Origin: Patescibacteria group bacterium
GTDB lineage: Bacteria; Patescibacteriota; WWE3; UBA101185; UBA10185
Direction: 5' to 3'
Length of the DNA: 64,000 bases
Assembly: GCA_049322215.1 (NCBI GenBank)
Contig: JBMORU010000001.1
Coordinates: 324,023-388,022, forward strand
A model generated the notes under the pieces. It had not been told where the DNA came from. It made no database searches and worked only from the letters and a program-made list of their open reading frames with translations. Positions 23,468 to 53,586 of the stretch are shown here, piece after piece; the first letter of the stretch is position 1; every line of letters starts with the position of its first letter. A program made the position numbers and the translations under genes.

Positions 23468-23761
23468 ATGTCCGACGCCTCGCTTTATACTGATAAAGAT
23501 AACATAGAAACAATTTCTTCTTTAACTAGTGGTTTAGTTGTTGAATCAGAATCTGACACTAATGCACACCGAAGATCTGTATTATTTAACTTATTTACTA
23601 GTGTAGGTAGGTATACATTGCTTTTCATTATGTCTGCAAGTTTTTTGGTCTTAAGTGCGGGTTTAATGCTAGGTGAAAGCGCTTCTAGACTTAAGTTACA
23701 GGTCACCCTTAGTGGTTCTGGTTACCCTAGAATTGCTAATATAATTGTTACAGAACTTTAA
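23468..23761 (+). CDS. Small hypothetical membrane protein (97 aa)
   Basis: ORF with one TM helix and no motif. Confidence 0.35.
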   Translation: MSDASLYTDKDNIETISSLTSGLVVESESDTNAHRRSVLFNLFTSVGRYTLLFIMSASFLVLSAGLMLGESASRLKLQVTLSGSGYPRIANIIVTEL

Positions 23762-23775
23762 TGTAAACTTTACTT

Positions 23776-24813
23776 ATGGATTTACTGCCCTACAAAGAAA
23801 ACACAGCGAGCATTAACCATATTTTAATTCAGAGCTTTAATGCAATTGGTTTGCTAATTTTAATTTTTACAGCCTCTTCAGGTTTACTAGTGCTTAGTGG
23901 ATTTTTAACTTTTAAAAACAGTGTTCTTGATATGCAAAGCGTACAAAGTGAAGTTTTGGGGGCAAAAACATGTTCTGCCAACTTTAAATCAGTAAGTATG
24001 CCCCTAACGGGTTTAGCAGACTCTTACGTTACCATGGAAGGCCGCAAATTTGATTTAGAGGGGGGTCTTTATCCCAATTCCCAAAACAAATATTCAGTCG
24101 AACACGAGGCCTTAGGTTTGATGGTCGCTAATGAAGTAAGAGAAAACGAAAGTAATTTTGGTATGCTTGCTATTGGTGGTGATTCAGCATCAAAAATATT
24201 CACACACTTTATTCCTTTGCTTGCTACCGACTTGAGTGTTAACTCTAAGTTACACGTGATAAATGGTGCTTATGCAAATAGCACAATTTTGAGTTGGGCA
24301 TCTTCAGAAAATACAGCTGTTTGGGATAATGCTGTTAAGCATGTATATGATGCTGGAATTTCTCCCGCTGACGTTTCCATACTGTGGATTCAAATGGAAC
24401 CTGATCCATTTTTATTACAAACAGTTGAGTTTCCTAAAAACATAACGCTTTATAGTGAAAACTTGTCTAAAATAATGTCTACTGCGTTAGAAAATTTTCC
24501 AAGTATTGAGTTGGTCTATGTAACAAGCAGCTATCGTAATTATAGTTACGACAAAAATGTTCTTTCAGAGCCTGCATTTTTTGAAACGGGCTACGGGGTT
24601 AAGTCATTTGTAGCAAATAATTTGCATAATACATCTCCGTGGGTTTCTTGGGGCCCTTATTTATGGAGTAATTCGTCTGACTGGTCTGCAGCAAACCTAG
24701 ATACAGACTGCATATCTTTATCAAATAAGGGCGCTGCAATACTTAGTGAAACTTTAGTGTCCTTCTTTAAAGCAGATAAAGTCTCTTCTTTGTGGTTTTT
24801 AGATAGCAATTAG
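23776..24813 (+). CDS. Hypothetical exported/bitopic protein (345 aa)
   Basis: N-terminal TM/signal anchor and a large N-x-S/T-rich domain. No motif recognised. Confidence 0.5.
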   Translation: MDLLPYKENTASINHILIQSFNAIGLLILIFTASSGLLVLSGFLTFKNSVLDMQSVQSEVLGAKTCSANFKSVSMPLTGLADSYVTMEGRKFDLEGGLYPNSQNKYSVEHEALGLMVANEVRENESNFGMLAIGGDSASKIFTHFIPLLATDLSVNSKLHVINGAYANSTILSWASSENTAVWDNAVKHVYDAGISPADVSILWIQMEPDPFLLQTVEFPKNITLYSENLSKIMSTALENFPSIELVYVTSSYRNYSYDKNVLSEPAFFETGYGVKSFVANNLHNTSPWVSWGPYLWSNSSDWSAANLDTDCISLSNKGAAILSETLVSFFKADKVSSLWFLDSN

Positions 24814-24834: not shown

Positions 24835-24865
24835 TTGACTTAGCCTAAGTTGGCCGTGGTATACT
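24835..24865 (+). promoter_or_regulatory. Putative extended -10 promoter (TTGACT ... TGgTATACT) ahead of the DUF948/YtxH/T4CP operon
   Basis: TTGACT at 24835-24840, TGgTATACT at 24857-24865, spacer 19 nt (a little long). It is the only promoter-like signal in the 130-nt gap before a run of tightly packed or overlapping genes extending to 32574. Confidence 0.35.
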
Positions 24866-24943
24866 TTTTAAAGTAGAAAGGTTACTGCCCTAACCCGTTT
24901 TGACTTTTAATTAAGTTTCTACTGGCCAAAGGCTAGATAAATT

Positions 24944-25231
24944 TTGGATATACAGGTAGTTTTAGTCATTTTATTAGCTCTTCTTACTGTCAATCTTCTT
25001 GTTGTCGGTGTTTACGTAGTTTTAGTTTTAAAAGAATTTCGCGAAACTGTAAAAAAGGCAAATGTAGTTTTAGATGATGTTGAAGCAGTTACCTCTACTG
25101 TAAGTAAAACTTTTTCCAGCCCAATTTCTACTTTAATCGGAGTTGCCACTGCTGCTTTTCAAGGTATGAGGGCAGTAAAATCTTTAGGATCTATAAGTAG
25201 TTTAGCGGGTAGTGACGAGGAGGAAGATTAA
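24944..25231 (+). CDS. DUF948-like small membrane protein
   Basis: N-terminal TM followed by a VRETVKKANVVLDDVEAVTSTV-type coiled segment, characteristic of DUF948 proteins that pair with YtxH. Confidence 0.55.
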   Translation: MDIQVVLVILLALLTVNLLVVGVYVVLVLKEFRETVKKANVVLDDVEAVTSTVSKTFSSPISTLIGVATAAFQGMRAVKSLGSISSLAGSDEEED

Positions 25232-25656
25232 TGTCTAAAAAACATACTCACGATGATGGAAGTTTTCATTCATTTGTAAATGGTGCAGTATTTGGTGCCA
25301 TTGCAGGTGTTGTATTAGGTGTTTTGTTTGCCCCAACTTCAGGTGTTGAATCGCGCAAAAAGTTAAAAGAAGTTTCAGACGATGCAGCTGAAAAATTTGA
25401 TGAGGTTAAAATAGCTGCAGAACCTTTAATTGCAGAAATAGAACAAAAAGTTGCCCCAGTAATGCAAAAAGTTAAAGAAGCTGAGGGTCCAATTAAATCT
25501 GAGGTTTTAGAAAGAGTAGCTCAATTGGTGGAAGAAGTAGATGTTATGACCGATGGAGCCGTTACTGAAAAAAAAGAAAAATTACAAAGCACTAAAGCTA
25601 AATTCTTTAAAAACACAAAAAAGTCCGAATCTGATCCTTCTCAAGAAAACGCTTAA
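25231..25656 (+). CDS. YtxH-like protein
   Basis: GAVFGAIAGVVLGVLFAPTSGVESRKKLKE is the YtxH glycine-zipper/APKSG motif. The stop overlaps the ATG (taATG). Confidence 0.6.
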   Translation: MSKKHTHDDGSFHSFVNGAVFGAIAGVVLGVLFAPTSGVESRKKLKEVSDDAAEKFDEVKIAAEPLIAEIEQKVAPVMQKVKEAEGPIKSEVLERVAQLVEEVDVMTDGAVTEKKEKLQSTKAKFFKNTKKSESDPSQENA

Positions 25657-25673
25657 AATGCTAGAATTGTCCT

Positions 25674-26582
25674 ATGCAGGACTTGCCCACAGATAACACA
25701 AACAATAATAATTCTGGTAGTCAGCACCCAAACCCATTTTATATTGATGATAGTACAGAAATTGATTTAAACTCTACCCAAGAGCAAGTATCTACGCTTA
25801 AACATGAAAGTGCTGTTGAACCTACTCCACCGACTGTTGCAGAACCTGTGCCTTCCCCTGATCCTACTTACATAAATCCTCAACCCGTTGTTGTTGCCGA
25901 GCCAGTACCTTCGGCACCTATACCTGCAGTACCTATACCCGTGCCCGAACCTGTTATACCAGAACCCTTGCCATCAGTGCCTTCCCCACCTGAGGTTTCT
26001 GCAATGCCCAGTATTTCAAGTACTACTATAGAAAATTCTGCCCCCAATGATTTTACACAAGAGAATGTTCCCGAGTGGATGCAAGTGCAACCAATAGCAG
26101 ATAGTAATATGCCTTCTCCCGATGAAGAAGAGGGTTTACTTGAGGACGGAAATCCGTTTGCTGAACCCTCAGATACCGCTGTGTCTCAGCCACCTGTTAC
26201 GCCTCAAACCCCTATAGTATCTAGCACTACAAGTGGAGGTTTAGAAGGAGTTGGAAGTGAAAGCTTAAGTTCATTTGCACCTGTTGAATCAGTACCTGAA
26301 GCTCTACCAAGCGAACTTGCCCCCGAGGTTTTGAGTACGTCTGAATCTGCAGAGTTTCAAACTCCGGCACCCGCAGCACCAACACCAGCCATGCCTCAGC
26401 AAGCGCCTGAAAATATTGTTCCTCAACAAATGCAAGCTTCTGATTTACAAGGGCATTTAATAGATAAAAGAACCTCCCATGAGCAGCTACACGAGGTTTC
26501 TAGCGTAGATCCTACTACCAAGTGGGCTGACGAAGAAGAGGAAGAGTTTATAGTTGGGGTAGAAGAAGCCCATAAACACTAA
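25674..26582 (+). CDS. Proline-rich, acidic, predicted intrinsically disordered protein (302 aa)
   Basis: Low-complexity PxPxP/EPVP repeats, no TM helix, acidic C-terminus (DEEEEEF). The stop codon overlaps the ATG of the downstream ATPase (TAATG). Confidence 0.55.
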   Translation: MQDLPTDNTNNNNSGSQHPNPFYIDDSTEIDLNSTQEQVSTLKHESAVEPTPPTVAEPVPSPDPTYINPQPVVVAEPVPSAPIPAVPIPVPEPVIPEPLPSVPSPPEVSAMPSISSTTIENSAPNDFTQENVPEWMQVQPIADSNMPSPDEEEGLLEDGNPFAEPSDTAVSQPPVTPQTPIVSSTTSGGLEGVGSESLSSFAPVESVPEALPSELAPEVLSTSESAEFQTPAPAAPTPAMPQQAPENIVPQQMQASDLQGHLIDKRTSHEQLHEVSSVDPTTKWADEEEEEFIVGVEEAHKH

Positions 26583-29008
26583 TGCAAGATATAACCACAA
26601 TATTCACGCTTTTGATAATAATAATTATTGTAGTTGGCGTTATAGCAGGTATTGTTACTTTTTTACTAAATAAAAAGCGCCGCCAATTAGAACAAAGCGA
26701 TCAATATAAATTAACTTTTTTACAGGTAAAGGTGCCTCCTAGTGATGAAAGCGAAATAAAGGTAGCAGAAAGTTTATTTTCTAGCTTAATGGGTATTTCG
26801 TCTAGTAATGCCTCATGGTTATTAAAGGGACATAGTCGTGTGTCTTTCGAAATTGTATCTAATACAGAAGGCATAAGCTTTTATGTTGTTGCCCCAGATG
26901 ATATTGCCGTGCTCGTTGAAAAACAAATAAACGGAGCTTATCCCGATGCTGAAATAGACATTATAGATCCCCAAGAAGTATGGGATAGAGGTGAGTATAC
27001 TTCAGTAGCCGAGTTAAGACTAAGTGGGCCTCACTACTATCCAATAAAAACTTATGAATCTCTAGGGAGCGATTCGTTAAGTGGCATTACTACAGCCATG
27101 AGTAAGTTAAAGCCCGATGAAGTGTTAGCCTTACAAGTAATTATAAAACCAGCCGGGGACTTTTGGCGTGACAGAGGTAGCCAATATATTTACGATGTGA
27201 AAAACAAAGCATCTGCAACAGAAAATTCAGCACCGGTAGACCAAAATTTAGTTCAAGGCATAGAAAAGAAAATATCTAAACCTGGTTTTTACACAACTAT
27301 ACGTGTAATTTCTATAGCCAAAGATCGTTTTTCTGCAGAAAGTAATGTTACAAACTTAACTAATGCGTTCGAGCAATTCACGGACCCCACATTTAATAGG
27401 TTAACACGCAAAAGTGTGAAAACAGCAATTTTTATTGATGACTTTATATACAGACGTCCTAATTTCACGGACATTCGCATACCTGGTTTAGGTTGGCAGA
27501 TCAAAAGAAACACATCGGTATTAAACATTGAAGAATTGGCAACTATATTTCATTTTCCAAACAAAAATGTTAAAACACCAAGCATTAATTGGCTGCGTGC
27601 GCGTAAATCTTCGGCGCCCATTAATTTACCTACTGATGGCTTATATTTAGGACAAAGTTTATTCAGAGGTGTTTCTACAGATGTTTACATTAAAGATAAA
27701 GACCGTAGGCGCCATATGTATATAATTGGACAAACAGGTACAGGTAAATCTGAGTTTTTAAAGGGTATGGCTTTACAAGATATTGTGAACGGTGAGGGGC
27801 TTGCAATAATAGATCCACACGGTAGTGCTGTAGATGACATAATGCAAAAAATCCCAAGAGAACGGGCTGAAGATGTTGTTTTGTTTAATGCTTCAGATAC
27901 CGAAATGCCTATTGGTTTAAATGTTCTTGAGTGGAAAGACGAGCGCGAAAAAAACATTATTATTAACGCTTTTATTGGCTTGCTAAAAAAACTTTATGAT
28001 CCTAATAATCAAGGTGTTGTGGGGCCAAAACTTGAACGTGCCGTTAGAAACGTAATGTTAACCGCAATGTATGATAAAGACTCCACTTTAATAGATGTGT
28101 TGCGCTTACTAATTGATTCTGAATATTCAAAGAAGTTTTTTCCTTTAATTAAAGATCCTCTTGTAATGCGTTACTGGACAGATGAAGTAGCAAAAACAAG
28201 TGATTTTCATAAAAGTGAAACCATGGGATATTTTGTTTCTAAGTTTGACAGATTTATTACCGAAAGATCTATGCGAAATATGTTAGGCCAACCACATTCG
28301 TCACTTGACTTTGAATACATTATGGAAAACAAAAAGATTTTATTGGTCGACCTTTCTAAAGGTAAAATAGGTGAGGAAAATTCAACTTTCTTGGGATTAA
28401 TTATCGTTCCACGTATATTAACTGCCGCCTTAAAAAGAGCACAGGTGTTGGCAGAAGGGGGAGATTTTCCTGATTTTTACTTATATGTTGATGAGTTTCA
28501 AAACTTTGCAACTCCTGATTTTGCCACAATTTTGTCGGAAGCACGAAAATATAAACTAGACTTGATAGTTGCTAACCAATTCATAGGGCAACTAACCGAA
28601 GGAATAAAAGATGCAATATTTGGTAATGTAGGTACTTTGGTATCTTTTCGAGTGGGTATTGATGACGCAGATTATTTGGAAAAGCAGTTTGAGCCTACAT
28701 TTATGTCAAATGACTTATTAAATAATGCCATGGGTAACTGCTATATGCGTTTGCTTATCGATGGACATCCCTCAGAACCGTTTTCAATGCGTGTAGATTG
28801 GGATGCAGATCGAGATGATATTTCTACAAAATATGTAAACATTGATAAAAATATTGAAATGGCAAGATATATTCGTCAGCTATCAAGGCAAAAATACGGA
28901 AAGTACTTTGCAGATGTTGAAGCATTTATTCAAAAGCGGGCTGGTTTTGATACACCTCCTCAAATGCCAGAACCTCCCAAACCCAAAAGGCGACGCCCTG
29001 CATTTTAG
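26582..29008 (+). CDS. TrwB/TraD/VirD4-family (type IV coupling protein-like) P-loop ATPase with one N-terminal TM helix and a roughly 350-aa extra N-domain
   Basis: Collinear with TrwB motifs: HMYIIGQTGTGKSEFLKGMALQDIVNGEGLAIIDPHGS resembles HLLVNGATGTGKSVLLRELAYTGLLRGDRMVIVDPNGD. Walker B region FYLYVDEFQNFATPDFATILSEARKYKLDLIVANQFIGQL resembles LWLFIDELASLEKLASLADALTKGRKAGLRVVAGLQSTSQL. Recalled from memory, no alignment run. Confidence 0.7.
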   Translation: MQDITTIFTLLIIIIIVVGVIAGIVTFLLNKKRRQLEQSDQYKLTFLQVKVPPSDESEIKVAESLFSSLMGISSSNASWLLKGHSRVSFEIVSNTEGISFYVVAPDDIAVLVEKQINGAYPDAEIDIIDPQEVWDRGEYTSVAELRLSGPHYYPIKTYESLGSDSLSGITTAMSKLKPDEVLALQVIIKPAGDFWRDRGSQYIYDVKNKASATENSAPVDQNLVQGIEKKISKPGFYTTIRVISIAKDRFSAESNVTNLTNAFEQFTDPTFNRLTRKSVKTAIFIDDFIYRRPNFTDIRIPGLGWQIKRNTSVLNIEELATIFHFPNKNVKTPSINWLRARKSSAPINLPTDGLYLGQSLFRGVSTDVYIKDKDRRRHMYIIGQTGTGKSEFLKGMALQDIVNGEGLAIIDPHGSAVDDIMQKIPRERAEDVVLFNASDTEMPIGLNVLEWKDEREKNIIINAFIGLLKKLYDPNNQGVVGPKLERAVRNVMLTAMYDKDSTLIDVLRLLIDSEYSKKFFPLIKDPLVMRYWTDEVAKTSDFHKSETMGYFVSKFDRFITERSMRNMLGQPHSSLDFEYIMENKKILLVDLSKGKIGEENSTFLGLIIVPRILTAALKRAQVLAEGGDFPDFYLYVDEFQNFATPDFATILSEARKYKLDLIVANQFIGQLTEGIKDAIFGNVGTLVSFRVGIDDADYLEKQFEPTFMSNDLLNNAMGNCYMRLLIDGHPSEPFSMRVDWDADRDDISTKYVNIDKNIEMARYIRQLSRQKYGKYFADVEAFIQKRAGFDTPPQMPEPPKPKRRRPAF

Positions 29009-29049
29009 GTAGTATGGACTTATTCTCCTAACTGTGAAAAAATATTTGT

Positions 29050-32000
29050 ATGCCTGCAGATGTTATTGAAGCACAAGATAAACAAGACGTATTTGAAAAA
29101 GCCCATAATATTGAATCTGAAAACGAACCCGAAGGTCGTGCCTCTAGAGCTACTTCTAGAGCAATAGAGTTTGGTGAACGTGCTATAGAGGGCATGAATA
29201 GAGATGAAAAAAGACACCATCAGGAGATACTAAACTCCTTTAAAGAGCGTGTTCAAAACCTCAACCCTGATCAACAACCGCCTGACTCTCCTGATAACCA
29301 AGCCTATCATGATCTTCCAAATGAAATTAACGATTATTTGTTTGAACAATGGCAGTTAGGTATAGTTGAAGGGCTTAATTTAATTACCGATCAGGCTGAC
29401 GCCGCCTTACAAAATCCAGATGTTAGAGAAGCAGTATTTCAAGTAATGAATGTGATAGCTGAAAATGGGATTGATTTAGATGATGATGATTTAGAATTAA
29501 GTGATAGGTTAACTCCTATTGTTACCGCTGCGAATCAGTATGTGGAAAATCACTTTATTTCTTTTAATGATTTTGTAGAAAGGCATAACTTAAGAGAATA
29601 TGATGAAAACACAGAACTAGATGAAGTTTATGATTTTCGTGCAGAACAAACTGACTCGCGAGAGGCTGATGTTCAAACTTTAAGTGCTGCTTTAGAAGAA
29701 ATTATTCCCGACCCTAACGCCGAAATAGATAGATCCCCCACCATGGAAATGGGTGATACTACCTGGGGACATTTTGTTCCTAACAGGGAGGCATGGAACA
29801 ATACATTTTTTAATGATTCTAGCGAAGTACTATCTGCGGTAGTTTCTGAAGAATTACGAGATAGAAAGGGAGAAATTCCAAAAGATTTACGTCCTTCCCA
29901 ACATGTCAGTTTAGTAAGTGGTTATACTAGAAGAAAGGGCGACAACGCAATTGTACAAGCGCCAATTTTAAGCATTAATATTAAAAAAACAGAGTTACAG
30001 GTACCACATAACGAAGTTGTAACAGATATAAGAAAATTACGTCCCGACCACCCCACTGTAATGAATCGTCGTATTACTAACCCAGGAGCTTTATATGAAT
30101 GGGAACAACAACTAATGAACGCAGTTATAGAAGAGAATGAGTTTAAAAAGCCAGATGAAAGGCGTGTTCGCTTTGTAACAACTAGTGTAGATAAACAAAT
30201 GAAACCCGTAAATAAACTATTAGAAGTCAGTTATGAAGATTACAATCAAATGGTGCGTGCAACTCAAAGTGCTAGAGCTCAGTATGAACGTGTAGGTATA
30301 AAAGTGGAAAAAGATCCTGAGGCTGAGAAAGAAACTTTAACTGAGTTTGGTAAAAGTTTAAATCGTGCTGAGTATTTAAAAACAAGAGAAAGAATGGCGT
30401 CGTATTTAGATGCAGAAATTTCACGTTTACGTGAAGAGGGCAATGATTATTTGGCAGATCAAATGGAATCTTCTAAAGATAGTTTGGTATATATGTATCA
30501 AGAACTTTCAATTCATTATGATAGTGATGCCTACCATAACGCCGCTGCAAAAGAAAACTTACGCAGTCGACTAGAAGGTGATGATTCAATAGCAGAGGGT
30601 AGCGACGAATGGAATACTATGCTTACCGATGAGATTGCTCAATTACGCTTAGAATATTCTTATAAAGCTGTTGTATATAAAGATCATGCAGAATATTTAG
30701 GCTCTCAAATTGATATGTTGCTAGAAAGTGGAGATCGTGCAAGTGCTCAAGCAATGCTGTTAAACTTGGACAAATTAATAGAAATAGAAGCAAGAGCTTA
30801 TTACTTGACCGATGTTCAAGATATAGTAGAAAATCCTGAAACCTCTACAGACGAAGACCCTGATTATTTACCTTTGAAGTCGGTAGATGAGTTTAGGCAA
30901 GAAATGTACGCTTTATCCGAAGGATTTTTACGTAAAGGCACAAACAAAGAAGCTGAGCTAGTTACAATAGGTGCTGAGATGCAAGAAGAGTGGGGAGAAG
31001 CAATTAGTTTATGGCAACAATTAGATGAAACTTTTGGTGATGAGTTGCATAACCTAAGTTTATTCGAATTAGAGGTTTTAGCTGTATTAGAGGATAAGCA
31101 CTTATTAGGCGCAAGAGTAGAGGCTTTGCAACCAAGTGAAGCAGACATACATACCAGCGACTTTTTGGAAACGCAGTTTAAAGGAATGTTTGGTAGAGAA
31201 CCAACTGAGGAGGAGTGGTATTTTGTAACTTTACAAATGATGCGTCAGCAGTATGACGATAATTTAGCTTCTACTACACACCTAAACGGTGGTATAGAAA
31301 GCTTGATGACTTATGTTTCAAATAACTACAATCAAAACTCTTTAGTAGAGCGCTCGAATAATGGGCTTTTTGAGCATGCTCGTTACTTATTAGATGTTAA
31401 TGAGGTATCTCATTTAGAAGCTGAAAGATTAAGATTGCAAACACAAGCAGGATTAGCTGCAGAAAATGAAGATTTAGAAAGAAAAGATCAAATCAGAGAA
31501 TATATGCAAAAACGCGCACGTGATCGTCAAGAGCATAACGCCGCTGTTCGAAAAATGAATGAGCAGGTTGAACTAAATAACAGAGAACGTAAGAATCAAG
31601 AAGAATTAAGAAAAGCTAATGCTGAATTGTTAAAGAAAAGAAATGAAGCGCGGGATCGCCAACAGCAAGAAATTATAGATCAGGAAGCAAAAGCAAAATT
31701 ACGTGAATCAGAGTCACTTGCTCGTGAGGTGGCAAAGGAAAATTCCGCCGCTTTAGATAATTCTGAGCAAATTGCCGAAGCTCGGGCTGTGCTTCGCGCT
31801 GCTGAAGAGAGGGCTCGTGCCGTAGCAGAAGAAAATGCACAAGGGGTGGATAATTCTGAACAAGTAGCTGCAGCTCAAGAAGAATTACGTGCTGCTGAAG
31901 ACCATGTTCGTGAAATAGCAGAAGAAAATGCAGCTGCAGAATCGGAGCTAAATAATTTACCTGAAGACATAGTTGATGAGGTAGAGCAAGTTACAGAAAT

Positions 32001-32574
32001 TGTTGAACCTGAACCTTCGCCAATAGAGTTTCAAGGTTCGGTAGAAGCTGATGTTGCCTCTATTAAAGAGCTTCTTAGCGTAGGGGAACTTCGTGGATTT
32101 GCTCATAACTACAGAGGTTGGGGTGGTGAAGGACAGCGTAATTTTCATGGAGGTATTTCAGGTAACGAGGCCGATTGGATGCATACCTGGCTTGAAGAAG
32201 AAGTCGCTGTTGATGCTGACTTTGTACAAAATGGTGGCTCACAAGTTGACTTGATAACCTCTCCAGAAATTTTAGAACCCTTAGACTTACAACCGGGGCA
32301 AGCAGTTTTACGTTTAACTTACAGAGTAAATCAAACTGAAGGAAACGAACCTGGTGAAGGTGCCACATTTAATGCATATATGGTTGTTCCAGAAGCTGCA
32401 GGAAACGCTTTTTGTGATTCTATAGAAGCCAATGAACAACAATTTGATTATGCTGCACGTGTAATGGCAGAAGCTTTAGACGAAAAGCTTTATTTAGATA
32501 ACGAAGGGTATAACGTTCCTGCTGGACAGGGTAACAATATACTAAACGTCAGTGGAGTTAAAGTTAATCGTTAG
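29050..32574 (+). CDS. Giant (1174 aa) highly acidic, coiled-coil-rich protein with no TM segment; possible secreted substrate or partner of the upstream ATPase
   Basis: Uninterrupted ORF that is D/E-rich throughout, with a central ERK-rich coiled coil and internal imperfect repeats. No catalytic motif recognised. Confidence 0.6.
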   Translation: MPADVIEAQDKQDVFEKAHNIESENEPEGRASRATSRAIEFGERAIEGMNRDEKRHHQEILNSFKERVQNLNPDQQPPDSPDNQAYHDLPNEINDYLFEQWQLGIVEGLNLITDQADAALQNPDVREAVFQVMNVIAENGIDLDDDDLELSDRLTPIVTAANQYVENHFISFNDFVERHNLREYDENTELDEVYDFRAEQTDSREADVQTLSAALEEIIPDPNAEIDRSPTMEMGDTTWGHFVPNREAWNNTFFNDSSEVLSAVVSEELRDRKGEIPKDLRPSQHVSLVSGYTRRKGDNAIVQAPILSINIKKTELQVPHNEVVTDIRKLRPDHPTVMNRRITNPGALYEWEQQLMNAVIEENEFKKPDERRVRFVTTSVDKQMKPVNKLLEVSYEDYNQMVRATQSARAQYERVGIKVEKDPEAEKETLTEFGKSLNRAEYLKTRERMASYLDAEISRLREEGNDYLADQMESSKDSLVYMYQELSIHYDSDAYHNAAAKENLRSRLEGDDSIAEGSDEWNTMLTDEIAQLRLEYSYKAVVYKDHAEYLGSQIDMLLESGDRASAQAMLLNLDKLIEIEARAYYLTDVQDIVENPETSTDEDPDYLPLKSVDEFRQEMYALSEGFLRKGTNKEAELVTIGAEMQEEWGEAISLWQQLDETFGDELHNLSLFELEVLAVLEDKHLLGARVEALQPSEADIHTSDFLETQFKGMFGREPTEEEWYFVTLQMMRQQYDDNLASTTHLNGGIESLMTYVSNNYNQNSLVERSNNGLFEHARYLLDVNEVSHLEAERLRLQTQAGLAAENEDLERKDQIREYMQKRARDRQEHNAAVRKMNEQVELNNRERKNQEELRKANAELLKKRNEARDRQQQEIIDQEAKAKLRESESLAREVAKENSAALDNSEQIAEARAVLRAAEERARAVAEENAQGVDNSEQVAAAQEELRAAEDHVREIAEENAAAESELNNLPEDIVDEVEQVTEIVEPEPSPIEFQGSVEADVASIKELLSVGELRGFAHNYRGWGGEGQRNFHGGISGNEADWMHTWLEEEVAVDADFVQNGGSQVDLITSPEILEPLDLQPGQAVLRLTYRVNQTEGNEPGEGATFNAYMVVPEAAGNAFCDSIEANEQQFDYAARVMAEALDEKLYLDNEGYNVPAGQGNNILNVSGVKVNR
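31729..31950 (+). repeat. Imperfect tandem repeat of about 93 nt x 2.4 inside the giant ORF (encodes AEENAxxxDNSEQxAxAxxxLRAAExxxR)
   Basis: Direct comparison of 31729-31821, 31822-31914 and 31915-31950 shows roughly 60-70% nucleotide identity and a repeated peptide motif. Confidence 0.5.
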
Positions 32575-33300
32575 TTAAACATAGGCTAGTTCTTTAGGAT
32601 AGAACTTTTTATGTTCAACATTTAATTCCTTATATTTTTCCATATCATTTGTAAGCCTTGCTAATATTATGTTACTTTGTTGCACGCGTTCTAATAACTT
32701 TATTCGTGTAGTTTGTTGAGCTTTTTCTATATCGTTTGTTTTGTTGGTTTCCATATCCATGTAATCTCTTAATTCTTGGCGTGCAAGAGTATCTCTGTAA
32801 TCAGTACTATCTCTATATTTTTCAAACTTTCTTGCAGCATTTGCCATATGAGCCATATGCTCTCTTTTTTCTATATAAGCCTTTTCCTCAGTTTGTTGTA
32901 TATCACTCATTAAGGCGTCAGTATATTCTACAAAGTCTAATATTTCTTTTTGTAGTTCATTATTTTCAAATAAGCCTATGTACTCATTTAATATAATTAA
33001 TCTTCTTAGTACTTTTTTTGATTGAGTGGCATGTTGAATATTAAATATAGAATTTAATTCAATATCATGCTCTAGCATAGTTAAAAACGTTTTTAATCTA
33101 ATAAGTTCTGCTTCTAACATTTCTATTAGCTTTCTGGTTTTTTTCTTTTTTTCTACTATTACAGCAATATTTTCACTACCGCTTTTTCTTATATAAGTGG
33201 CTATTATGATTAATAAGGACACTAAAGATAGTGCCCAAATAACCCAAAGGTATTCCTCAGAGTAAATCAGAAAATTGTCTTGAATAAACTGTAAAGTCAT
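32575..33300 (-). CDS. Bitopic membrane protein with a long cytoplasmic coiled-coil domain (241 aa)
   Basis: One TM helix (aa 17-37), the rest E/K/R-rich heptad-like. Convergent with the giant ORF and abutting its stop. Confidence 0.5.
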   Translation of the reverse strand: MTLQFIQDNFLIYSEEYLWVIWALSLVSLLIIIATYIRKSGSENIAVIVEKKKKTRKLIEMLEAELIRLKTFLTMLEHDIELNSIFNIQHATQSKKVLRRLIILNEYIGLFENNELQKEILDFVEYTDALMSDIQQTEEKAYIEKREHMAHMANAARKFEKYRDSTDYRDTLARQELRDYMDMETNKTNDIEKAQQTTRIKLLERVQQSNIILARLTNDMEKYKELNVEHKKFYPKELAYV

Positions 33301-35482: not shown

Positions 35483-36697
35483 ATGTCCCTATTTAATTCT
35501 TCAAAAAAACCTGCTCGCTTTTTAACTGTAGACATAGGTTCAAATTTGGTTAAGTGTATGGTGTTTGAAGTTGACCCTGAGCAAAACTCCAAAATAGTAA
35601 ATGTAATAGGTGAAGGTGCCGAATCGTTGCCAATGGGTGCTACTAGAGGTGGTGTTATTGTGCATCCCGAAGAAGTAGAAGATGCCTTAAAAATGGCACT
35701 AAACAAAGCTACCGAAGATTTAGATCACAAAGTTAAAGATGTGATTTTTGGTGTGAGTGGTGATTTAGCTTTAGGTTTAATGACAACTGTAAAAATAGTT
35801 AGAGGTAAAAACGATGCTGTGTCAGAGAAAGAATTAAATAAAGTTTACGACAAAATTTATCAGGCTTCTTTAGACGAAGCCTCTACACAACTTTATGAAT
35901 ATACCGGTAACTCCGATGTAGACCTTGAAATAGTTACTTCTTCTATGGTTTATACTAAGTTGGACGAAAAGCTTGTATCTAACCCAGTGGGTATGGAAGC
36001 GTCTAAAATGGAAATTGCTTTTTACGCCTGCTTTTGTCCTAGTTTTCATATTCAATCTCTTCAGAATTTAGCAAAAGCACTAGGTTTAAACATTATTGCT
36101 ATTGGTTCCCAAATGTATGCTGCAGCAAAAGCACTACAGCTGTCGAGTTCTGAAGTATTAGATTGTGCCTTAATGGATATAGGCGGGGAACAAACCGATG
36201 TAGCCATAGTTTTTGGTGGCGGCATTGTGGCAACACGTAGCTTGCCAATTGGTGGAAATCATTTTACTTCCGAAATTAGTAAAAAAATGAACATCCCTTT
36301 TGCAGATGCAGAAAAAGTGAAGCAAGAATATTCTTTTGGCAATTTATCTGAAAGCGAAAACATGGTTTTGCAGGATAGTATTGTACCAATAATGGAAACG
36401 TGGCTTAGCGGTGTAGAATTGTTGTTTACAGAGTTTACTGGTGTTAAAACATTTGCTTCCAAAATATTTTTAATTGGTGGTGGTGCAGAACTTCCGGATA
36501 TTGAAGAGTTTATAGCCAAAGAACCTTGGACTCGTTCAATACCGTTTAAATCACCTCCGGAATTTAGTAAACTCTCTTTGGCAGACTTATCACATATAGT
36601 AGATAAAACCGGATCCTTACAGTCTATGTCTGATTTACTACCTGCCTCTTTATCTATAATTTATTTGGAGTTAAACGGGTTTTTAGATGAAAGATAA
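35483..36697 (+). CDS. FtsA-like actin-fold ATPase (FtsA/PilM family)
   Basis: Phosphate-1 LTVDIGSNLVK, connect/phosphate-2 DIGGEQTDVAIVFGGGIVATRSLPIGGNHFTSEISKKMNIPFADAEKVKQEY (like FtsA DIGGGTMDIAVY...GG..T.DIA...). 404 aa. Confidence 0.6.
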   Translation: MSLFNSSKKPARFLTVDIGSNLVKCMVFEVDPEQNSKIVNVIGEGAESLPMGATRGGVIVHPEEVEDALKMALNKATEDLDHKVKDVIFGVSGDLALGLMTTVKIVRGKNDAVSEKELNKVYDKIYQASLDEASTQLYEYTGNSDVDLEIVTSSMVYTKLDEKLVSNPVGMEASKMEIAFYACFCPSFHIQSLQNLAKALGLNIIAIGSQMYAAAKALQLSSSEVLDCALMDIGGEQTDVAIVFGGGIVATRSLPIGGNHFTSEISKKMNIPFADAEKVKQEYSFGNLSESENMVLQDSIVPIMETWLSGVELLFTEFTGVKTFASKIFLIGGGAELPDIEEFIAKEPWTRSIPFKSPPEFSKLSLADLSHIVDKTGSLQSMSDLLPASLSIIYLELNGFLDER

Positions 36698-38240
36698 ATT
36701 AGTTTTAGAATTACATGACGATATAGTATCTGTACTTGCACGAATAGAAGATATTAATGTTAATGAAATAACTGTAGAAATTCCTGAAGGGTCTGTACTG
36801 TTTGATAACAGTATAAGTATTAAACTGTTGTTAAAAGAAGCAGAGAAGTTAGGTAAAAATCTAACTTTGGAGACAACCGATTCTAATGGGCAACAGATTT
36901 TGGCTATGCTCGACCAGGGTGTTAATTCTGGTTTTGATGGCTTTAGGTCAAAGGAAATATCGGAATCAGATTTTGAAGAAGCTCCTACAATGTCTAAAAG
37001 GAAGTTTTCTAAACCAAAATTACCTGCGTTTAAAGTTCCTAGACTCAAATTTCCAAAGCTCAATTTTAAACTTCCTTTAATAATTATTGCAATTTTAATT
37101 TTACTGGGTGGCGTAGGTTACGCTTTAGTTTGGCGTGCTCCTGAAGCAACAGTACGCATGATTGTTGATATTGATCCCTTAACAAAAAGCTTAACTGTTA
37201 AAGTTGTTGGTGATGGCGCAAATACTGAAACCGAACTTCCAACATTGCCCGGGAAAACTATAACAGCTTCTGTAAGTGATCAACTAACAATTGAAACCAC
37301 TGGAGAAAAAACAGTAGGTGAGGTTGCTGAGGGTAAAATAACGGTTTATAACCGAACTGATACTGAAGTAAAGTTGGATAAAGGTACAGTTATTACGTAT
37401 AAAGAAGATGATTCAGATTTAAGTTTTAAACTAAATGACGATGTCACTATTCCGCCCGAAACTTTAGAAGACCCTGCAGATTTAACAAGCCCCAGCATTC
37501 CCGGGCAAGCTGATGTAGATGTAACTGCTTTAGAATTTGGAGAAGCATATAACATTGACAATGATGAAACTTTAGAATTTGAAGACTATAAAAAAGGTGA
37601 GCTTTTTGCAAAATCATCGGGAGCTTTTGAAGGGGGTTCTAGCGAAACAGTTAAAGTTGTTACCGAAGAGGATTTAACCGAGTTATCGGCTAAACTAAAA
37701 GAGCAGCTTACTGAATCCAGTTTGTCTTCTTTAGAAAAAAAGCTAAGTAGTGGTACAAAGCAAATTCCAGGATCACAAGAGGTAACAGTTTCAACAGAAG
37801 ATTTTAGCGCAGAAGTTGGGGATGAAGAAGATGAACTTACCTTAACTCAGGTGGCTACAGCTACGGTTCTTACTTATTCTGAAAGCGAACTCAACAAATT
37901 ATTGGACACTTTGGTAGATAACTTAGTTCCAGATGGCTTTGTTTTATCCGACAAAGATAGAGAGGTGAACGTTGAGATACTTGGTTCTACAGATAGCACT
38001 GCCTTAAGTCTTACTGAAGCAGATTTACAAGTGACTTTAAAAGCTTTTGTAGTGCCCGACATAAATGAGGAGTCAATTAAGTCAGATTTAGCCGGTAAGA
38101 AACTTGCTGAAGCAGAGAAAGTTTTAGGTGGTGTTAGAAACATTTACAAATATGAAATTGAATTAAAAAATTCTGTGCCTTTCTTCCAGCGCATGCCTAC
38201 AAATACCGAGAATATTTCAATAAACATCGAAAGAAAATAA
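36687..38240 (+). CDS. Bitopic protein: cytoplasmic N-domain of about 125 aa, a TM helix, and a large acidic extracytoplasmic domain (517 aa). Possible FtsA-partner or divisome protein
   Basis: Overlaps the FtsA-like gene by 11 nt. Hydrophobic segment LPLIIIAILILLGGVGYALVW. No motif recognised. Confidence 0.5.
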   Translation: MKDKLVLELHDDIVSVLARIEDINVNEITVEIPEGSVLFDNSISIKLLLKEAEKLGKNLTLETTDSNGQQILAMLDQGVNSGFDGFRSKEISESDFEEAPTMSKRKFSKPKLPAFKVPRLKFPKLNFKLPLIIIAILILLGGVGYALVWRAPEATVRMIVDIDPLTKSLTVKVVGDGANTETELPTLPGKTITASVSDQLTIETTGEKTVGEVAEGKITVYNRTDTEVKLDKGTVITYKEDDSDLSFKLNDDVTIPPETLEDPADLTSPSIPGQADVDVTALEFGEAYNIDNDETLEFEDYKKGELFAKSSGAFEGGSSETVKVVTEEDLTELSAKLKEQLTESSLSSLEKKLSSGTKQIPGSQEVTVSTEDFSAEVGDEEDELTLTQVATATVLTYSESELNKLLDTLVDNLVPDGFVLSDKDREVNVEILGSTDSTALSLTEADLQVTLKAFVVPDINEESIKSDLAGKKLAEAEKVLGGVRNIYKYEIELKNSVPFFQRMPTNTENISINIERK

Positions 38241-38704
38241 TGGCGGGTAAAAAAAAATTCACTAAAAAGTCGCATACTAACAGCAAAGAAAAAAAACTTG
38301 GAGAAGTTTTACTTGGTATTGATTATGGCGAACGTAACATTGGGTTAGCTTTAGGGCATAATGGGCTAACAATGCCTTTGCATGTTGTTAACGGTGCTGA
38401 CGGTTTGAGTGCCCTTAATGATATTAATATTTTAGTTAAAGAAAATAAGGTAAATAGGCTAATTATGGGTTTACCCTTAAACGCTGAAGGCAAAGAAACT
38501 ATTATGGCAAAAAAAATTAGAATTTTTGCAAAGCTTTTAAAGGTAGAGTTAAAACTTCCTGTTGATTTTGTAAGTGAATATGCAAGTTCTATTGAGTCTA
38601 TGAAAAGTGCTTTAAATCAAGATGTATCTCAAAAAAGACGTCAACTTATTGATCATTTATCTGCTGCTATAATTCTAAAAAATTATTACGAATCTCTAAA
38701 TTAA
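38240..38704 (+). CDS. ruvX: YqgF/RuvX-like Holliday-junction resolvase / pre-16S rRNA nuclease
   Basis: LLGIDYGERNIGLALG ... LIMGLPLNAEGKE matches the RNase H-fold YqgF pattern. An N-terminal K-rich extension is unusual. Confidence 0.65.
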   Translation: MAGKKKFTKKSHTNSKEKKLGEVLLGIDYGERNIGLALGHNGLTMPLHVVNGADGLSALNDINILVKENKVNRLIMGLPLNAEGKETIMAKKIRIFAKLLKVELKLPVDFVSEYASSIESMKSALNQDVSQKRRQLIDHLSAAIILKNYYESLN

Positions 38705-50022: not shown

Positions 50023-53000
50023 ATGAGAAAATTTGCAACTGTCTTTATTGTTTTATTAGGCGTTTTTGTTTACTCTTTGGGCTTATTGCCTCAAGGTTTA
50101 GTATCTGTGCCTTCTGCAAAAGGCCAAACTCTTACTCAAGGTCCTACCGTACATGTACACCCTCAAAACCCAAAGTATTTTGCGGATTCTAATGGGAATC
50201 CCTTATATTTAACAGGTTCACACACTTGGGCTTTATTACATCAACATCCTGATATTTCAGCGACCGACACGTCCGACGCGCATATGGCGGAGTTTTTAGA
50301 TACTGTGCAGGGTCATGGAAATAATTTTGTGAGATTTTGGTCTAACAGTTCTTATTTAGAATCAAAGCCATTCCCTTGGAAAAGAACTGGCCCAGGTACT
50401 GCTGCAGATGGACTTCCAAAATTTGACATGAAAAGTTTTGATAATAGCTATTTTACGAACTTACGTAAAAAAGTTGAAATGATAGAAAATAGAGGAATGT
50501 ATGCTTCGGTGATGCTGTTTGGCTCTTACAATGGGATTAAAAGTGACTGGGCAAATAATTCTGCTTGGTATCCAGGGAATAACATTAATCCTGAGTTGGC
50601 TTCTGCTTTTACCAATAGTAATCCACAGTCCTTTTTTACTACAAATTCAGCTGCTTTAGCTATACAAAAGTCATTAGTAAAACGAACAATTGATGAATTA
50701 AACCATTTGGACAACATAATGTGGGAAATTATGAATGAGCCAGATATGCCCCCAAGCGAAGTTTGGCATAATGAAATTATTGCCTATATTCGTGACTATG
50801 AAGCTACTAAACCAAAACAACATTTAATTGTAGCAACAACCGGCGGTGCTAGTGGCAATTTAAATAGCAGTTTATACAAAACAACAGCCGACGTAATTGC
50901 GCCTACAGTACGTGAGGTGAATTATAAAGATGGTGGCCCTGTGAATTACGACGCTAAATTAGTATTTGTTGATAGTGATCACTTATATGGGTATTCAAAA
51001 CTAGCCCAGAAACCCGATATATTAGATACACTATGGAAAAGTGTAACAAGAGGGAATCATTTCATATTTATGGACTCTTATGATACTGTCGATCCTGTTG
51101 GTAATGATGGTTTTGTAGATCCCGCTTGGAATGTTGTGCGAGACTCTATGGGAATTTCGAGAGAGTATTTAGGTAAAATGGATTTAGTCAAAGTTACGCC
51201 TAGCATTACTATATCTAGCACTGGTTATAGTTTAGTAAATCCTGGGAAGGAATATTTGGTATATCAACCTAGCAGTAAAGCTTTTACTGTTAATTTAACT
51301 GCTGGAGACTATGATTATGAATGGTTTAATACAAGTACCGCGAAAGCTTCGAATACAGGTACTATAACTGCTTCTGGTGGTAATTATAATTTCACTTCCC
51401 CTTTTGGTTATCCTGCCCTATTGTTTATAAAGGCTTCTACATCTACACCTCCTCCCCCTCCTGCTGACCCAGTGTGTGGGGACAACCAATGTAATGGGAA
51501 TGAAACATGTAGCACGTGTGCTTCGGACTGTGGTGTATGTGCTCCGCCACCATCTATTCCTCCTGCAGTAGGAAAGTTAGAAGCGGAGGATGCTGCCTTT
51601 GGGGATACATCCGCAGGCACCACTAAAATTTCTCAAGTACACACGGGATATAGCGGTAGTGGTTATATAGATATGAGTGACTTTCCAAACGGAAAAGACA
51701 GTTTTATTGAATGGACCATGGATGTAGCTACTGCCGGGAAATACAAATTAGACTTTAGCTATGCTTTAAATGGAACCACACGTTCTGTAGATCTTTTTAT
51801 AAATGGGCAAAATGTTGGCACTATAAACTTTACTTCAACAGGTTCTTGGACTTCAAGGGTAGAGATTGGGAATGAATATGATTTGCCTAAAGGCATTGTT
51901 AAGGTGCGCATACAGGCTACGGGTTTATATGGCGGGCCTGATGTAGATTACATGCGTGTAACCGAAGTTTCTGTGCTTCCTCCAGCACCCCCTATCTGTG
52001 GAGATAATGAGTGTAATAATGGTGCTGAGACCTGTGATACTTGTTCTGCGGATTGTGGTACTTGCCAAGATCCCACACCACCACCATCTAACACTGGTAA
52101 ACTCGAAGCTGAAGACGCCTCCTATGGAGACAATTACAAATTAGGTACTACTAAAGTGGCCACTGAGCATTCTGGTTACAGTGGTAGCGGTTTTGTTGAT
52201 ATAAGTGACTATCCTAATGGTAAAGGTGGTTATGTAGAATGGGAATTTAATGTAGAGAATGCGGGTACCTACAGCTTAGATATAGCCTATGCCCTGTATG
52301 GAGGTAAGAGGTATATGAATTTGATTGTTAACGGATCTTCGTTGGGAGAATTACCTTTTGCTAAAACTGGCGCGTGGGACAAATGGAGTATGGCAACAAA
52401 AGCTGTGGTGCTTAAGAATGGAACAAACACAGTACGTTTAGAAGGTACTCGAAGTAATGGCGGCCCTAATATAGATTATTTAAACACCCAATTACTAGTA
52501 TCTTCTAGCACTAAGTACGAAGCTGAAAATGCAGTTTTTGGAGATATTGTTGGTGGGGGTAAAACTAAGGTAGCAAAAGATTTTAATGGATATAGTGGCA
52601 CAGGGTTTATAGACTATAGTGATTTACCTGCCGGAACAGGCAGTTTTGTTGAATGGTCTGTAGATACTGGCGACGCAGGTGAATACCTTTTAAAGTTTGC
52701 ATATGCATTAGATTCGAAAAGTACTTGGATAGCTCCAAGCGGGGGTAGACCCTTAGACTTAACAGTAAACGGTAAACTAATTGAAAATATAACCTTTTTT
52801 GGAACCGGGAACTCTTGGGAAGCCTGGGATTCTTTAAGCACTATGGTGCCATTAAATGAAGGTACAAATAAAATTCGATTACAGGCAACCCACATGTCAG
52901 GAGGTCCCAATATGGATTATTTAGAGGTTACTCCCGTAAATGGGCTTCAGCCTACTGGGGGTGCCGCATCAGCTAACTCTTCTGAAGTTACGCTGTCTCC

Positions 53001-53586
53001 ATTTAGTAATAGTTCTTTAAACGCTGTAAACAACACAGTTGATTCTCAAGGTGATGAAGTACCTCAAAGTATTGAGCCTGTAACTTCTTCTGAATCCGAA
53101 TACGTTACTCCAACAGAATCTAATATGGTTTTTAGCACTAGTTTTGAAAAAGATCCAATGGGGGATTTCAGTACAAGCGGGAGACAGGCTGAATTTTCGT
53201 GGGCATCTGATACTGCACATACAGGGGGGCACTCATTAAAAACTGTAGTAAAAGACAGTAGATATTATGGAAGTTGGACAAGCAAACGCACTTATGTACA
53301 AGCTGAGGCTAATCAAACATATGATCTTTCACTATGGTTAAAAGGAGTAAACGTAACCGATGGGATGACTGTAACAATGAGCTATTACGGGGGTTTATCA
53401 GGCACACAATATTTAGGTAGATTTGAAACTACTGTGCCTTCTTCTAAGGTTACTCCCTCATGGAGTCAAACGGCTGTTCAAGGCGCAGCTCCAGAAAACA
53501 CAACATATATACGTGTGTCTATTAGTCTTAAAGGTTCTGGAACCTTATGGGTGGATGATTTAGAGGTGCAAAAGGTTTTGCCCTAA
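50023..53586 (+). CDS. Secreted multidomain glycoside hydrolase: GH5-like (clan GH-A, DUF4038/GH140-like) catalytic domain, 3 CBM6/CBM35-like modules, a CBM4_9-like module, and Cys-rich/Pro-Thr linkers
   Basis: Signal peptide, then a catalytic NEP motif (MWEIMNEP). Three repeats follow of LEAEDAxxGD...GYSGSGxxDxSDxPNGK...WxxxVxxAGxYxLxxxYA...GxR...LxxNG......GPxxDY. The C-terminal ...TLWVDDLEV is CenC-type. Linkers: CGDNQCNGNETCSTCASDCGVC and CGDNECNNGAETCDTCSADCGTC. Confidence 0.7.
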   Translation: MRKFATVFIVLLGVFVYSLGLLPQGLVSVPSAKGQTLTQGPTVHVHPQNPKYFADSNGNPLYLTGSHTWALLHQHPDISATDTSDAHMAEFLDTVQGHGNNFVRFWSNSSYLESKPFPWKRTGPGTAADGLPKFDMKSFDNSYFTNLRKKVEMIENRGMYASVMLFGSYNGIKSDWANNSAWYPGNNINPELASAFTNSNPQSFFTTNSAALAIQKSLVKRTIDELNHLDNIMWEIMNEPDMPPSEVWHNEIIAYIRDYEATKPKQHLIVATTGGASGNLNSSLYKTTADVIAPTVREVNYKDGGPVNYDAKLVFVDSDHLYGYSKLAQKPDILDTLWKSVTRGNHFIFMDSYDTVDPVGNDGFVDPAWNVVRDSMGISREYLGKMDLVKVTPSITISSTGYSLVNPGKEYLVYQPSSKAFTVNLTAGDYDYEWFNTSTAKASNTGTITASGGNYNFTSPFGYPALLFIKASTSTPPPPPADPVCGDNQCNGNETCSTCASDCGVCAPPPSIPPAVGKLEAEDAAFGDTSAGTTKISQVHTGYSGSGYIDMSDFPNGKDSFIEWTMDVATAGKYKLDFSYALNGTTRSVDLFINGQNVGTINFTSTGSWTSRVEIGNEYDLPKGIVKVRIQATGLYGGPDVDYMRVTEVSVLPPAPPICGDNECNNGAETCDTCSADCGTCQDPTPPPSNTGKLEAEDASYGDNYKLGTTKVATEHSGYSGSGFVDISDYPNGKGGYVEWEFNVENAGTYSLDIAYALYGGKRYMNLIVNGSSLGELPFAKTGAWDKWSMATKAVVLKNGTNTVRLEGTRSNGGPNIDYLNTQLLVSSSTKYEAENAVFGDIVGGGKTKVAKDFNGYSGTGFIDYSDLPAGTGSFVEWSVDTGDAGEYLLKFAYALDSKSTWIAPSGGRPLDLTVNGKLIENITFFGTGNSWEAWDSLSTMVPLNEGTNKIRLQATHMSGGPNMDYLEVTPVNGLQPTGGAASANSSEVTLSPFSNSSLNAVNNTVDSQGDEVPQSIEPVTSSESEYVTPTESNMVFSTSFEKDPMGDFSTSGRQAEFSWASDTAHTGGHSLKTVVKDSRYYGSWTSKRTYVQAEANQTYDLSLWLKGVNVTDGMTVTMSYYGGLSGTQYLGRFETTVPSSKVTPSWSQTAVQGAAPENTTYIRVSISLKGSGTLWVDDLEVQKVLP

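Follow-up and report, generated by a model that had tools for sequence, protein, structure and literature searches.

The 808-aa protein discussed here is encoded on the + strand of a 64-kb stretch of contig JBMORU010000001.1, which comes from a Patescibacteria genome of the class WWE3 (the whole stretch is called the window below, and coordinates refer to it unless a locus label is given). It is very probably a domesticated type IV coupling protein (T4CP) of the DUF8128 type. The gene is apparently the WWE3 orthologue of a vertically inherited chromosomal ATPase present throughout the Patescibacteria, or Candidate Phyla Radiation (CPR), and an essential core function of this ATPase in the phylum is likely. 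Taken as a whole, the interpretation of the protein as a domesticated coupling ATPase, probably serving a relaxase-less chromosomal type IV secretion system (T4SS), is given a probability of about 0.5; functional coupling to a T4SS, considered separately, is proposed with some hesitation.

Architecture and descent of the DUF8128 ATPase

The ATPase (100% identical to NCBI MFZ5424524.1) is composed of the following parts:

26582..29008, + strand: DUF8128-type coupling-protein-like ATPase, 808 aa (PF26449, DUF87, TraG-D_C)
26603..26671, + strand: N-terminal transmembrane (TM) helix, residues 8-30, followed by KKRR (from the sequence; one long helix 2-40 in the model)
26699..27643, + strand: DUF8128 domain, residues 40-354, with a fold like that of the VirB4 N-terminal domain (structure comparison)
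27644..28816, + strand: RecA-type nucleotide-binding domain, with Walker A GQTGTGKS at nt 27728-27751 and Walker B YLYVDE at nt 28478-28495
27941..28327, + strand: all-alpha insertion, residues 454-582, equivalent of the T4CP all-alpha domain (AlphaFold2 model)

The motifs quoted in the initial annotation (IIGQTGTGKS...IIDPHGS and YVDEFQNF...RKYKLDLIVANQFIGQL) are present, and Walker A and Walker B are intact in a RecA domain of the FtsK/HerA type, as in T4CPs. The single N-terminal TM helix and the roughly 350 aa ahead of Walker A, also described there, were found both in the sequence and in the AlphaFold2 model (predicted local distance difference test 84.8), in which the N-terminal helix is followed by an alpha/beta domain (residues 40-354) and the RecA core. 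The TM helix with its adjoining KKRR suggests, by the positive-inside rule, that the remainder of the chain lies in the cytoplasm. Eight helices lie between the strands E432-436 and E586-590 and represent, at the level of the model, the all-alpha domain of T4CPs. TrwB aligns over 360-422 residues, and DotL and TrwB are the top solved-structure matches of the ATPase family profile.

Two TM helices directly ahead of the nucleotide-binding domain, a mark of T4CPs, were not found in the protein; one TM helix and the 310-aa DUF8128 domain stand there instead. The precomputed PF26449 label falls at the N-terminus and the P-loop in the C-terminal half, which is the layout of the DUF8128 family, and the domain is modelled with a VirB4-type N-terminal fold. 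The initial annotation had considered this region foreign to classical T4CPs. This is correct, but the region is not unique, since it corresponds to Pfam DUF8128 and occurs in plasmid coupling proteins as well.

The affinity of the motor was assessed with NCBIfam models in 40 family members. TraD and VirD4-like models matched 40/40, CedD 35/40, VirB4 16/40 (weakly) and HerA 1/40. Since the TraD and VirD4-like models match all 40 members and HerA a single one, the family does not score better as HerA/FtsK, and the earlier placement of the ATPase closer to T4CPs than to generic HerA/FtsK proteins can be retained. Neither the HAS-barrel N-domain of HerA nor the 4TM, alpha/beta and gamma domains of FtsK appeared as the best match. 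With Pfam models the window ATPase passes TraG-D_C (25.1 bits, cut-off 22), falls just below the cut-off of TrwB_AAD_bind (19.8 bits, cut-off 20.5; the match is recorded for several family members) and matches DUF87 weakly. Of the VirB4 sequence models, TIGR00929 gave 14.9 bits against a cut-off of 643, and no match to CagE_TrbE_VirB (PF03135) was obtained.

Homologues outside the phylum were found by tblastn of plasmids, and their matches are collinear, with the N-domain included. In the B. subtilis plasmid NZ_OX419568.1 a 913-aa 'DUF87' protein (WP_213380696.1) is collinear over 714 aa (24% identity, E=5e-41); its gene lies directly before that of a replication-relaxation protein and upstream of those of a TcpE-family protein and an 854-aa ATPase in the VirB4 position. 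In a haloarchaeal plasmid DUF8128 is a separate 391-aa protein located between a 'conjugal transfer protein' and a TraM-recognition ATPase (split pair WP_317175933.1 and WP_317175934.1). A hidden Markov model (HMM) of the CPR family scores 253, 109 and 177 bits for the Bacillus and haloarchaeal plasmid proteins and gives no match to the VirB4-position ATPases of these plasmids, to the relaxase or to FtsK. Since collinear plasmid homologues occupy the coupling-protein position, the architecture represents a real type of coupling protein that has received little notice. The ancestor of the ATPase is the coupling protein of conjugation systems in monoderms or archaea, and the CPR ATPases are chromosomal, TM-anchored descendants of a plasmid-type DUF8128 coupling protein. 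The arrangement bears on the divergence of VirB4 and VirD4: CPR and Bacillus plasmids have the two modules fused, haloarchaeal plasmids have them split. The plasmids at L086 (11687-19246) and L087 (6111-15743) are called 'non-mobilizable' by MOB-suite, and both carry apparent conjugation modules consisting of a coupling-position DUF8128 ATPase, a relaxase-like protein, TcpE and a VirB4-position ATPase.

Within the phylum the homologue search with the 808-aa ATPase returned 3557 matches, and PF26449 is recorded on all among the matches listed. Full-length relatives (34-60% identity) occur in at least 594 species, one genome per species being scanned, and belong to WWE3, Dojkabacteria, Woykebacteria, Parcubacteria groups, Saccharimonadia, Peribacteria and other lineages. 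The DUF8128 domain alone, used as the query, retrieved 2114 clusters at 50% identity and is N-terminal in near-full-length matches (~800-1100 aa). Across 76 sequences from the whole phylum, conservation reaches at least 95% at 96 positions, among them those of Walker A, Walker B and the candidate arginine and sensor residues.

The C-terminal ends of the ATPases differ between classes, being [IL]PF in WWE3 and GFGGFF in Dojkabacteria. The [IL]PF tail was considered as a docking motif of the whole family and rejected, since it is confined to WWE3. Long ATPases of Saccharimonadia (960-1500 aa; L042, L047, L050, L054 and L072) possess a Pro-rich C-terminal extension with a conserved end motif, GE[IV][YF]VD[ED]xGN[VI] or MYID[KN][DE]G[NK]IHYKE. 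The existence of two DUF8128 paralogues, short and long, in Saccharimonadia was also rejected, because L050 unites both contexts.

Acidic partner, essentiality and possible function

The gene directly upstream encodes a small protein that accompanies the ATPase:

25674..26582, + strand: acidic, Pro-rich, probably disordered partner, 302 aa; its stop overlaps the ATPase start
26457..26579, + strand: conserved C-terminal motif of the partner (…SSVDPTTKWADEEEEEFIVGVEEAHKH), from comparison of WWE3 relatives

The partner has an isoelectric point (pI) of 4.05 and no Pfam match; its Pro-rich character, reported initially, is reflected in a proline content of 17%. A homologue is located directly upstream of the ATPase in 23/23 WWE3-type loci, the C-terminal motif being the sole region conserved among the WWE3 relatives. 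In most other classes a same-strand open reading frame (ORF) for an acidic, often Pro-rich protein of 65-240 aa with class-specific C-terminal motifs occupies this place; the upstream gene frequently overlaps the start of the ATPase gene. The partners of different classes are treated as positional analogues.

Essentiality data are available for Southlakia epibionticum. In the transposon sequencing (Tn-seq) of Wang et al. 2023 (PMC10633639, Table S1), SEML1_0142 (1019 aa) is classified as ES/ES/ES (ES, essential) and assigned to a core, Patescibacteria-enriched family; SEML1_0141 (139 aa), directly before it, is classified as GD/ES/ES (GD, growth defect), and the neighbours SEML1_0143 and SEML1_0144 are non-essential. 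SEML1_0142 is left undiscussed in the text of that paper. It is taken here as the ATPase orthologue because of identical gene order and architecture rather than sequence: the Saccharimonadia locus L085, which carries a PF26449 ATPase, matches the Southlakia gene order (IF-3, YifB, small genes, ATPase, a ~190-aa protein on the - strand, a PKD/DUF11 protein on the - strand, GyrB and GyrA). The T4SS cluster of Southlakia is essential and lacks recognisable coupling and relaxase proteins (PMC10633639), and the true VirB4 of this organism is a separate gene, SEML1_0008.

Quinonero-Coronel et al. 2025 (PMC12102498) counted 5713 patescibacterial T4CP homologues in 2918 genomes, a set that may include the DUF8128 family; 148 of the 5713 lie near virB4. 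The same authors call the Southlakia t4cp non-essential and regard exaptation as possible. The two T4CP-like paralogues of Southlakia received opposite Tn-seq calls, SEML1_0142 (essential) and SEML1_0293 (non-essential), and the later literature mentions one, dispensable. The statement on a dispensable t4cp should be qualified, because the description fits SEML1_0293 and not SEML1_0142. The initial annotation regarded the locus as its best candidate for an undescribed system. This holds for the function, which is uncharacterised; but the family is in Pfam, patescibacterial T4CPs have been counted (PMC12102498) and the orthologue is listed in a Tn-seq table (PMC10633639).

According to the proposed mechanism, the ATPase would form a membrane-tethered hexameric ring, like TrwB, VirB4 and HerA. 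Driven by ATP, the ring could hand a substrate to a relaxase-less T4SS-like apparatus encoded elsewhere, usually near oriC, or could energise it, and the transport might be either export or CedD-like import. Coupling proteins commonly have small partners, such as CagZ, TraM and IcmSW, and the acidic partner could likewise be an adaptor or regulator. In the R388 structure the N-terminal domain of VirB4 touches the tails of VirB3 and VirB8, which suggests that DUF8128 could dock on membrane components. In WWE3 alone, membrane proteins of the DUF948 and YtxH types would be co-transcribed with the ATPase. With its phylum-wide distribution, a VirB4-like N-domain joined to a T4CP motor and a dedicated partner, the family is a concrete candidate for the missing coupling ATPase of the patescibacterial T4SS. 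A large part of bacterial diversity belongs to the Patescibacteria, which are host-dependent and whose T4SS is essential in the sole species tested.

Several results weigh against this interpretation. The cut-offs of the curated T4CP models in NCBIfam are all missed widely, the window ATPase reaching at most 43 bits against 250-800. T4SS genes were not found beside the ATPase in any CPR locus examined, so the link to a T4SS is one of guilt by homology and shared essentiality. No T4SS domain occurs among the Pfam-scanned neighbours at six representative CPR loci, which extends the orphan status noted earlier beyond the window, and no T4SS-like cluster appears among 77 ATPase neighbourhoods tabulated by gene size and composition. 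VirB3, VirB6 or VirB8-type genes are absent from beside the ATPase; the scanned neighbours are housekeeping genes in each class examined. Homology among the class-specific partner families was not demonstrable by hhalign (E=0.1, 0.0015 and 0.75). The orthology of SEML1_0142 is inferred from synteny and architecture, not from its sequence. SEML1_0142 is essential already at T0, while most T4SS genes are GD at this point (PMC10633639), which could mean a different process. Finally, T4CP homologues are recorded in 2918 genomes and VirB4 in 2417 (PMC12102498); some genomes may therefore keep the ATPase without a T4SS.

The last two points, together with the exaptation left possible in PMC12102498 and the fact that linkage to T4SS genes was never seen at the loci examined, agree with an alternative in which the protein is a stand-alone, Patescibacteria-specific essential membrane ATPase operating with no T4SS. 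Such an ATPase could drive the dislocation or assembly of surface or envelope proteins, or could act as a factor in cell division or in the envelope, with the partner as a cofactor. Genes of cell-wall synthesis and division recur nearby: RodZ-like and FtsA/PilM-like in WWE3, an L,D-transpeptidase in Saccharimonadia, PBP2 in Parcubacteria and SpoIID in L033. These envelope-gene neighbours vary by class, however, and could be there by chance, and the closest non-CPR homologues are plasmid coupling proteins. To our knowledge, the characterised members of the VirB4/VirD4/CedB/CedD clade all operate together with a channel derived from a T4SS, which also counts against a stand-alone ATPase. This alternative is unlikely, though it keeps appreciable weight; if the ATPase is not coupled to a T4SS, a major lineage would have in it an essential machine of its own, of unknown function.

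A bolder proposal, which we consider rather improbable, is that the ATPase and its acidic partner are a self-sufficient, essential Patescibacteria-specific motor uncoupled from the T4SS, moving large, highly acidic proteins without a signal peptide, such as the 1174-aa neighbour, or macromolecules derived from the host across a single membrane. Such a motor would open a novel path of secretion or uptake in support of the episymbiotic lifestyle.

Gene neighbourhood and the remaining alternatives

The other features of the locus are the following:

24835..24865, + strand: promoter-like element, TTGACT at 24835-24840, a 19-nt spacer and TGgTATACT ending at 24865 (consensus match only)
24944..25231, + strand: DUF948-like single-TM protein, 95 aa, TTG start; WWE3-specific member of the block
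25231..25656, + strand: YtxH-family membrane-anchored protein, 141 aa (PF12732, E=2.5e-12); WWE3-specific member of the block
29050..32574, + strand: acidic protein, 1174 aa, without a signal peptide or TM helix; lineage-specific neighbour
32575..33300, - strand: convergent single-TM protein, 241 aa, no Pfam match; outside the ATPase module

Seven + strand genes had been reported between 24944 and 32574. The region contains five ORFs (95, 141, 302, 808 and 1174 aa), with gaps too small for further genes. Their tight packing was otherwise described correctly: TAATG stop/start overlaps occur at 25231 and 26582, the largest intergenic gap is 41 nt and the other one 17 nt. The 1174-aa gene and the convergent 241-aa gene meet stop codon to stop codon with zero spacer (32572-32577). 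The sequence of the single promoter-like element is present at 24835-24865, but its 19-nt spacer is longer than the optimum, and the region contains sigma-70-like matches at chance level (31 found, 29.5 expected by chance in the promoter scan). The scanner accepts only 16-18 nt spacers; the element is hence unlisted and was read directly. The combined terminator and promoter scan of the region likewise gave chance level.

The seven-gene block was thought to act as one system; it is resolved here into a two-gene core, two WWE3-specific additions and a variable neighbour. The gene order DUF948, YtxH, acidic partner, ATPase is kept in WWE3, and linkage of the first two genes to the ATPase is confined to this class. 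The DUF948 label of the 95-aa protein is supported by its homologues, 10/13 of which match DUF948 (PF06103; best E=6e-5), but the window copy itself gives no match at E<=0.1. A DUF948-like gene lies upstream of the ATPase in 19/23 WWE3-type loci, and two of the four loci lacking it hold less than 500 bp upstream. The YtxH label of the 141-aa protein is well founded (47.5 bits in Pfam, cut-off 37.5); the protein is 46% identical to its counterpart in L002, and YtxH occurs in 17/23 WWE3-type loci.

Outside the block, the 5' context in WWE3 varies (DnaK, RodZ and other genes). In most WWE3 loci the ATPase is followed by genes for an FtsA/PilM-like protein, a 517-aa membrane protein and RuvX, this trio being directly downstream in 13-15 loci. 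In the window the trio occupies 35483-36697 (FtsA/PilM/MreB-like, 404 aa), 36687-38240 (517 aa, single TM helix) and 38240-38704 (RuvX); the 517-aa single-TM family is uncharacterised and has no Pfam match. Between the RodZ-like gene and the block (23468-24813) lie genes for 97-aa and 345-aa proteins with one predicted TM helix each, no Pfam match and no counterpart in the other WWE3 loci examined. In other classes the neighbours of the ATPase are PheS, PheT and L,D-transpeptidase, or SmpB, or PBP2 and transporters, so that the neighbourhoods show class-specific synteny among housekeeping genes. Genes suspected from their sizes (~940 aa, ~890 aa, multi-TM) to be VirB4 beside the ATPase in Saccharimonadia, Dojkabacteria and Parcubacteria were rejected by Pfam: they encode PheT, an unknown 895-aa protein, a P-type ATPase, a Na/Ca exchanger and an amino-acid permease. 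In the Saccharimonadia PheT at L046 3225-6050 (941 aa) an NlpC/P60 peptidase domain (E=1.5e-12, residues 447-520) is inserted between B3_4 and B5, and the PheT gene adjoins that of the L,D-transpeptidase.

The acidic character of the 1174-aa protein, stated in the initial annotation, is evident (20.6% D+E, pI 4.47, net charge -123), and a repetitive charged stretch is located at residues 860-960; Pfam gave no match for it. Its detectable relatives are only a 944-aa protein in the close relative L083 (40% identity), which follows a 2548-aa protein with carbohydrate-binding modules (CBM) away from the ATPase, and a 1196-aa protein in L084 (25% identity), which follows the ATPase. The protein is missing from most WWE3 loci and has no similarity to the giants found in the same slot in L002 or L021; it is a fast-evolving, variable neighbour rather than a core component. 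The protein upstream of the giant's homologue in L083 (333-7979) is of the CBM9/CBM35/CBM6 type and is encoded directly before it; a 241-aa protein and a short (610-aa) alanyl-tRNA synthetase (AlaRS) adjoin the same homologue.

Export or translocation of this giant by the ATPase, through a non-canonical envelope system including the DUF948, YtxH and convergent membrane proteins, was suggested initially and is improbable. At a distance of up to three genes from the ATPase, large acidic proteins (at least 450 aa and at least 19% D+E) are indeed enriched about 10-fold (20/334 versus 3/478; Fisher p=1e-5, uncorrected for phylogeny). The slot of the giant is filled in L002 and L021 by acidic giants that are not homologous to it and in L084 by a remote homologue, and the 1174-aa protein itself lacks a signal peptide and TM helix. 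A large acidic neighbour is nevertheless present at only 16/77 loci, and at most WWE3 loci there is none. The closest homologue of the giant, that in L083, is not beside the ATPase, and DUF948 and YtxH are restricted to WWE3. In Southlakia the ATPase is essential and its large neighbours are dispensable. Nor could membership of the convergent 241-aa protein in the system be upheld: its L083 copy stands with the giant's homologue and AlaRS instead of the ATPase, and the gene is missing from L084 and L002.

The window consists of housekeeping genes, as judged by Pfam scans of ORFs of at least 120 aa and precomputed Pfam labels for a few others. They include LepA, Adk, HrcA-GrpE-DnaK-DnaJ, NusA, IF-2, PNPase and RNase J, and further FtsK, RodZ-like, AlaRS, FtsA/PilM-like, RuvX, MiaB, MiaA, YceG and FtsEX-M23. 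The proximity of the ATPase gene to ftsK in WWE3, membership in the FtsK-HerA superfamily and the matches of 35/40 relatives to CedD, an archaeal DNA-import ATPase, could point to a translocase for DNA uptake or segregation, working with ComEC and type IV pili or at the septum instead of with a T4SS. We give this possibility very little weight.

No VirB4, VirB11, relaxase, integrase or transposase was found in these scans, as the initial annotation had observed of the window. The possibility that the protein is a HerA/DptH-like defence ATPase, or simply the coupling protein of some conjugative or integrative element, is effectively refuted by this content, class-wide synteny, occurrence at 34-68% identity in at least 594 species, normal GC content and an essential Southlakia orthologue. 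Marks of a mobile element (relaxase, integrase or transposase, mating-pair-formation genes, atypical composition, patchy spread) were not seen at the locus, the GC content of which (0.37-0.39) is unremarkable for the window (about 0.32-0.40); tRNA genes and Rfam families were not found in the 64 kb. Elsewhere in the window (50023-53586, +) a 1187-aa GH5 cellulase-like protein with CBM6 and CBM35 modules is encoded in this reduced WWE3 genome.

Comparison with known systems

Classical T4CPs (TrwB of R388, TraD, VirD4, DotL, Cag-beta) are anchored by two TM helices, whereas the 808-aa ATPase has one, and between its anchor and motor lies a VirB4-like domain of 310 aa. It also differs from them in being chromosomal and apparently vertically inherited, with no relaxase or T4SS genes nearby, and in missing their NCBIfam cut-offs. 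From VirB4 (TrwK of R388; the C-terminal domain of Thermoanaerobacter VirB4) the CPR ATPase is set apart by falling outside the VirB4 sequence models and by having no VirB3, VirB6 or VirB8 neighbours.

The plasmid ATPases with DUF8128 (WP_213380696.1; WP_317175933.1 with WP_317175934.1) resemble the CPR ATPase in collinear homology through DUF8128 and the motor. They adjoin a relaxase, or a 'conjugal transfer protein' and VirB3/VirB4-type genes, whereas the CPR forms do not. The Bacillus form, unlike the CPR ATPase, has neither an N-terminal TM helix nor a small acidic upstream partner, and in the haloarchaeal form DUF8128 and the motor, fused in CPR, are separate proteins.

The Southlakia pair SEML1_0142/SEML1_0141 is similar to the WWE3 pair in having a small gene directly upstream, and its P-loop domain begins from about residue 381 after an unassigned N-region. 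SEML1_0142 is longer (1019 aa) and bears the C-terminal extension of the Saccharimonadia type; unlike the WWE3 locus, it is not accompanied by DUF948 or YtxH.

CedD/TedD of the crenarchaeal Ced/Ted systems (PMC11823120) is likewise a chromosomal, membrane-bound VirD4-like ATPase with no relaxase. The matches of the CPR family to the CedD model are weak (best E=7.5e-10, far below the cut-off), and CedD is UV-induced and non-essential, with no DUF8128 or acidic partner reported. In Sulfolobales CedD is unlinked to the T4SS-derived Ced import machine and yet is required for it (PMC11823120), which provides a precedent for an ATPase serving a T4SS encoded elsewhere in the genome.

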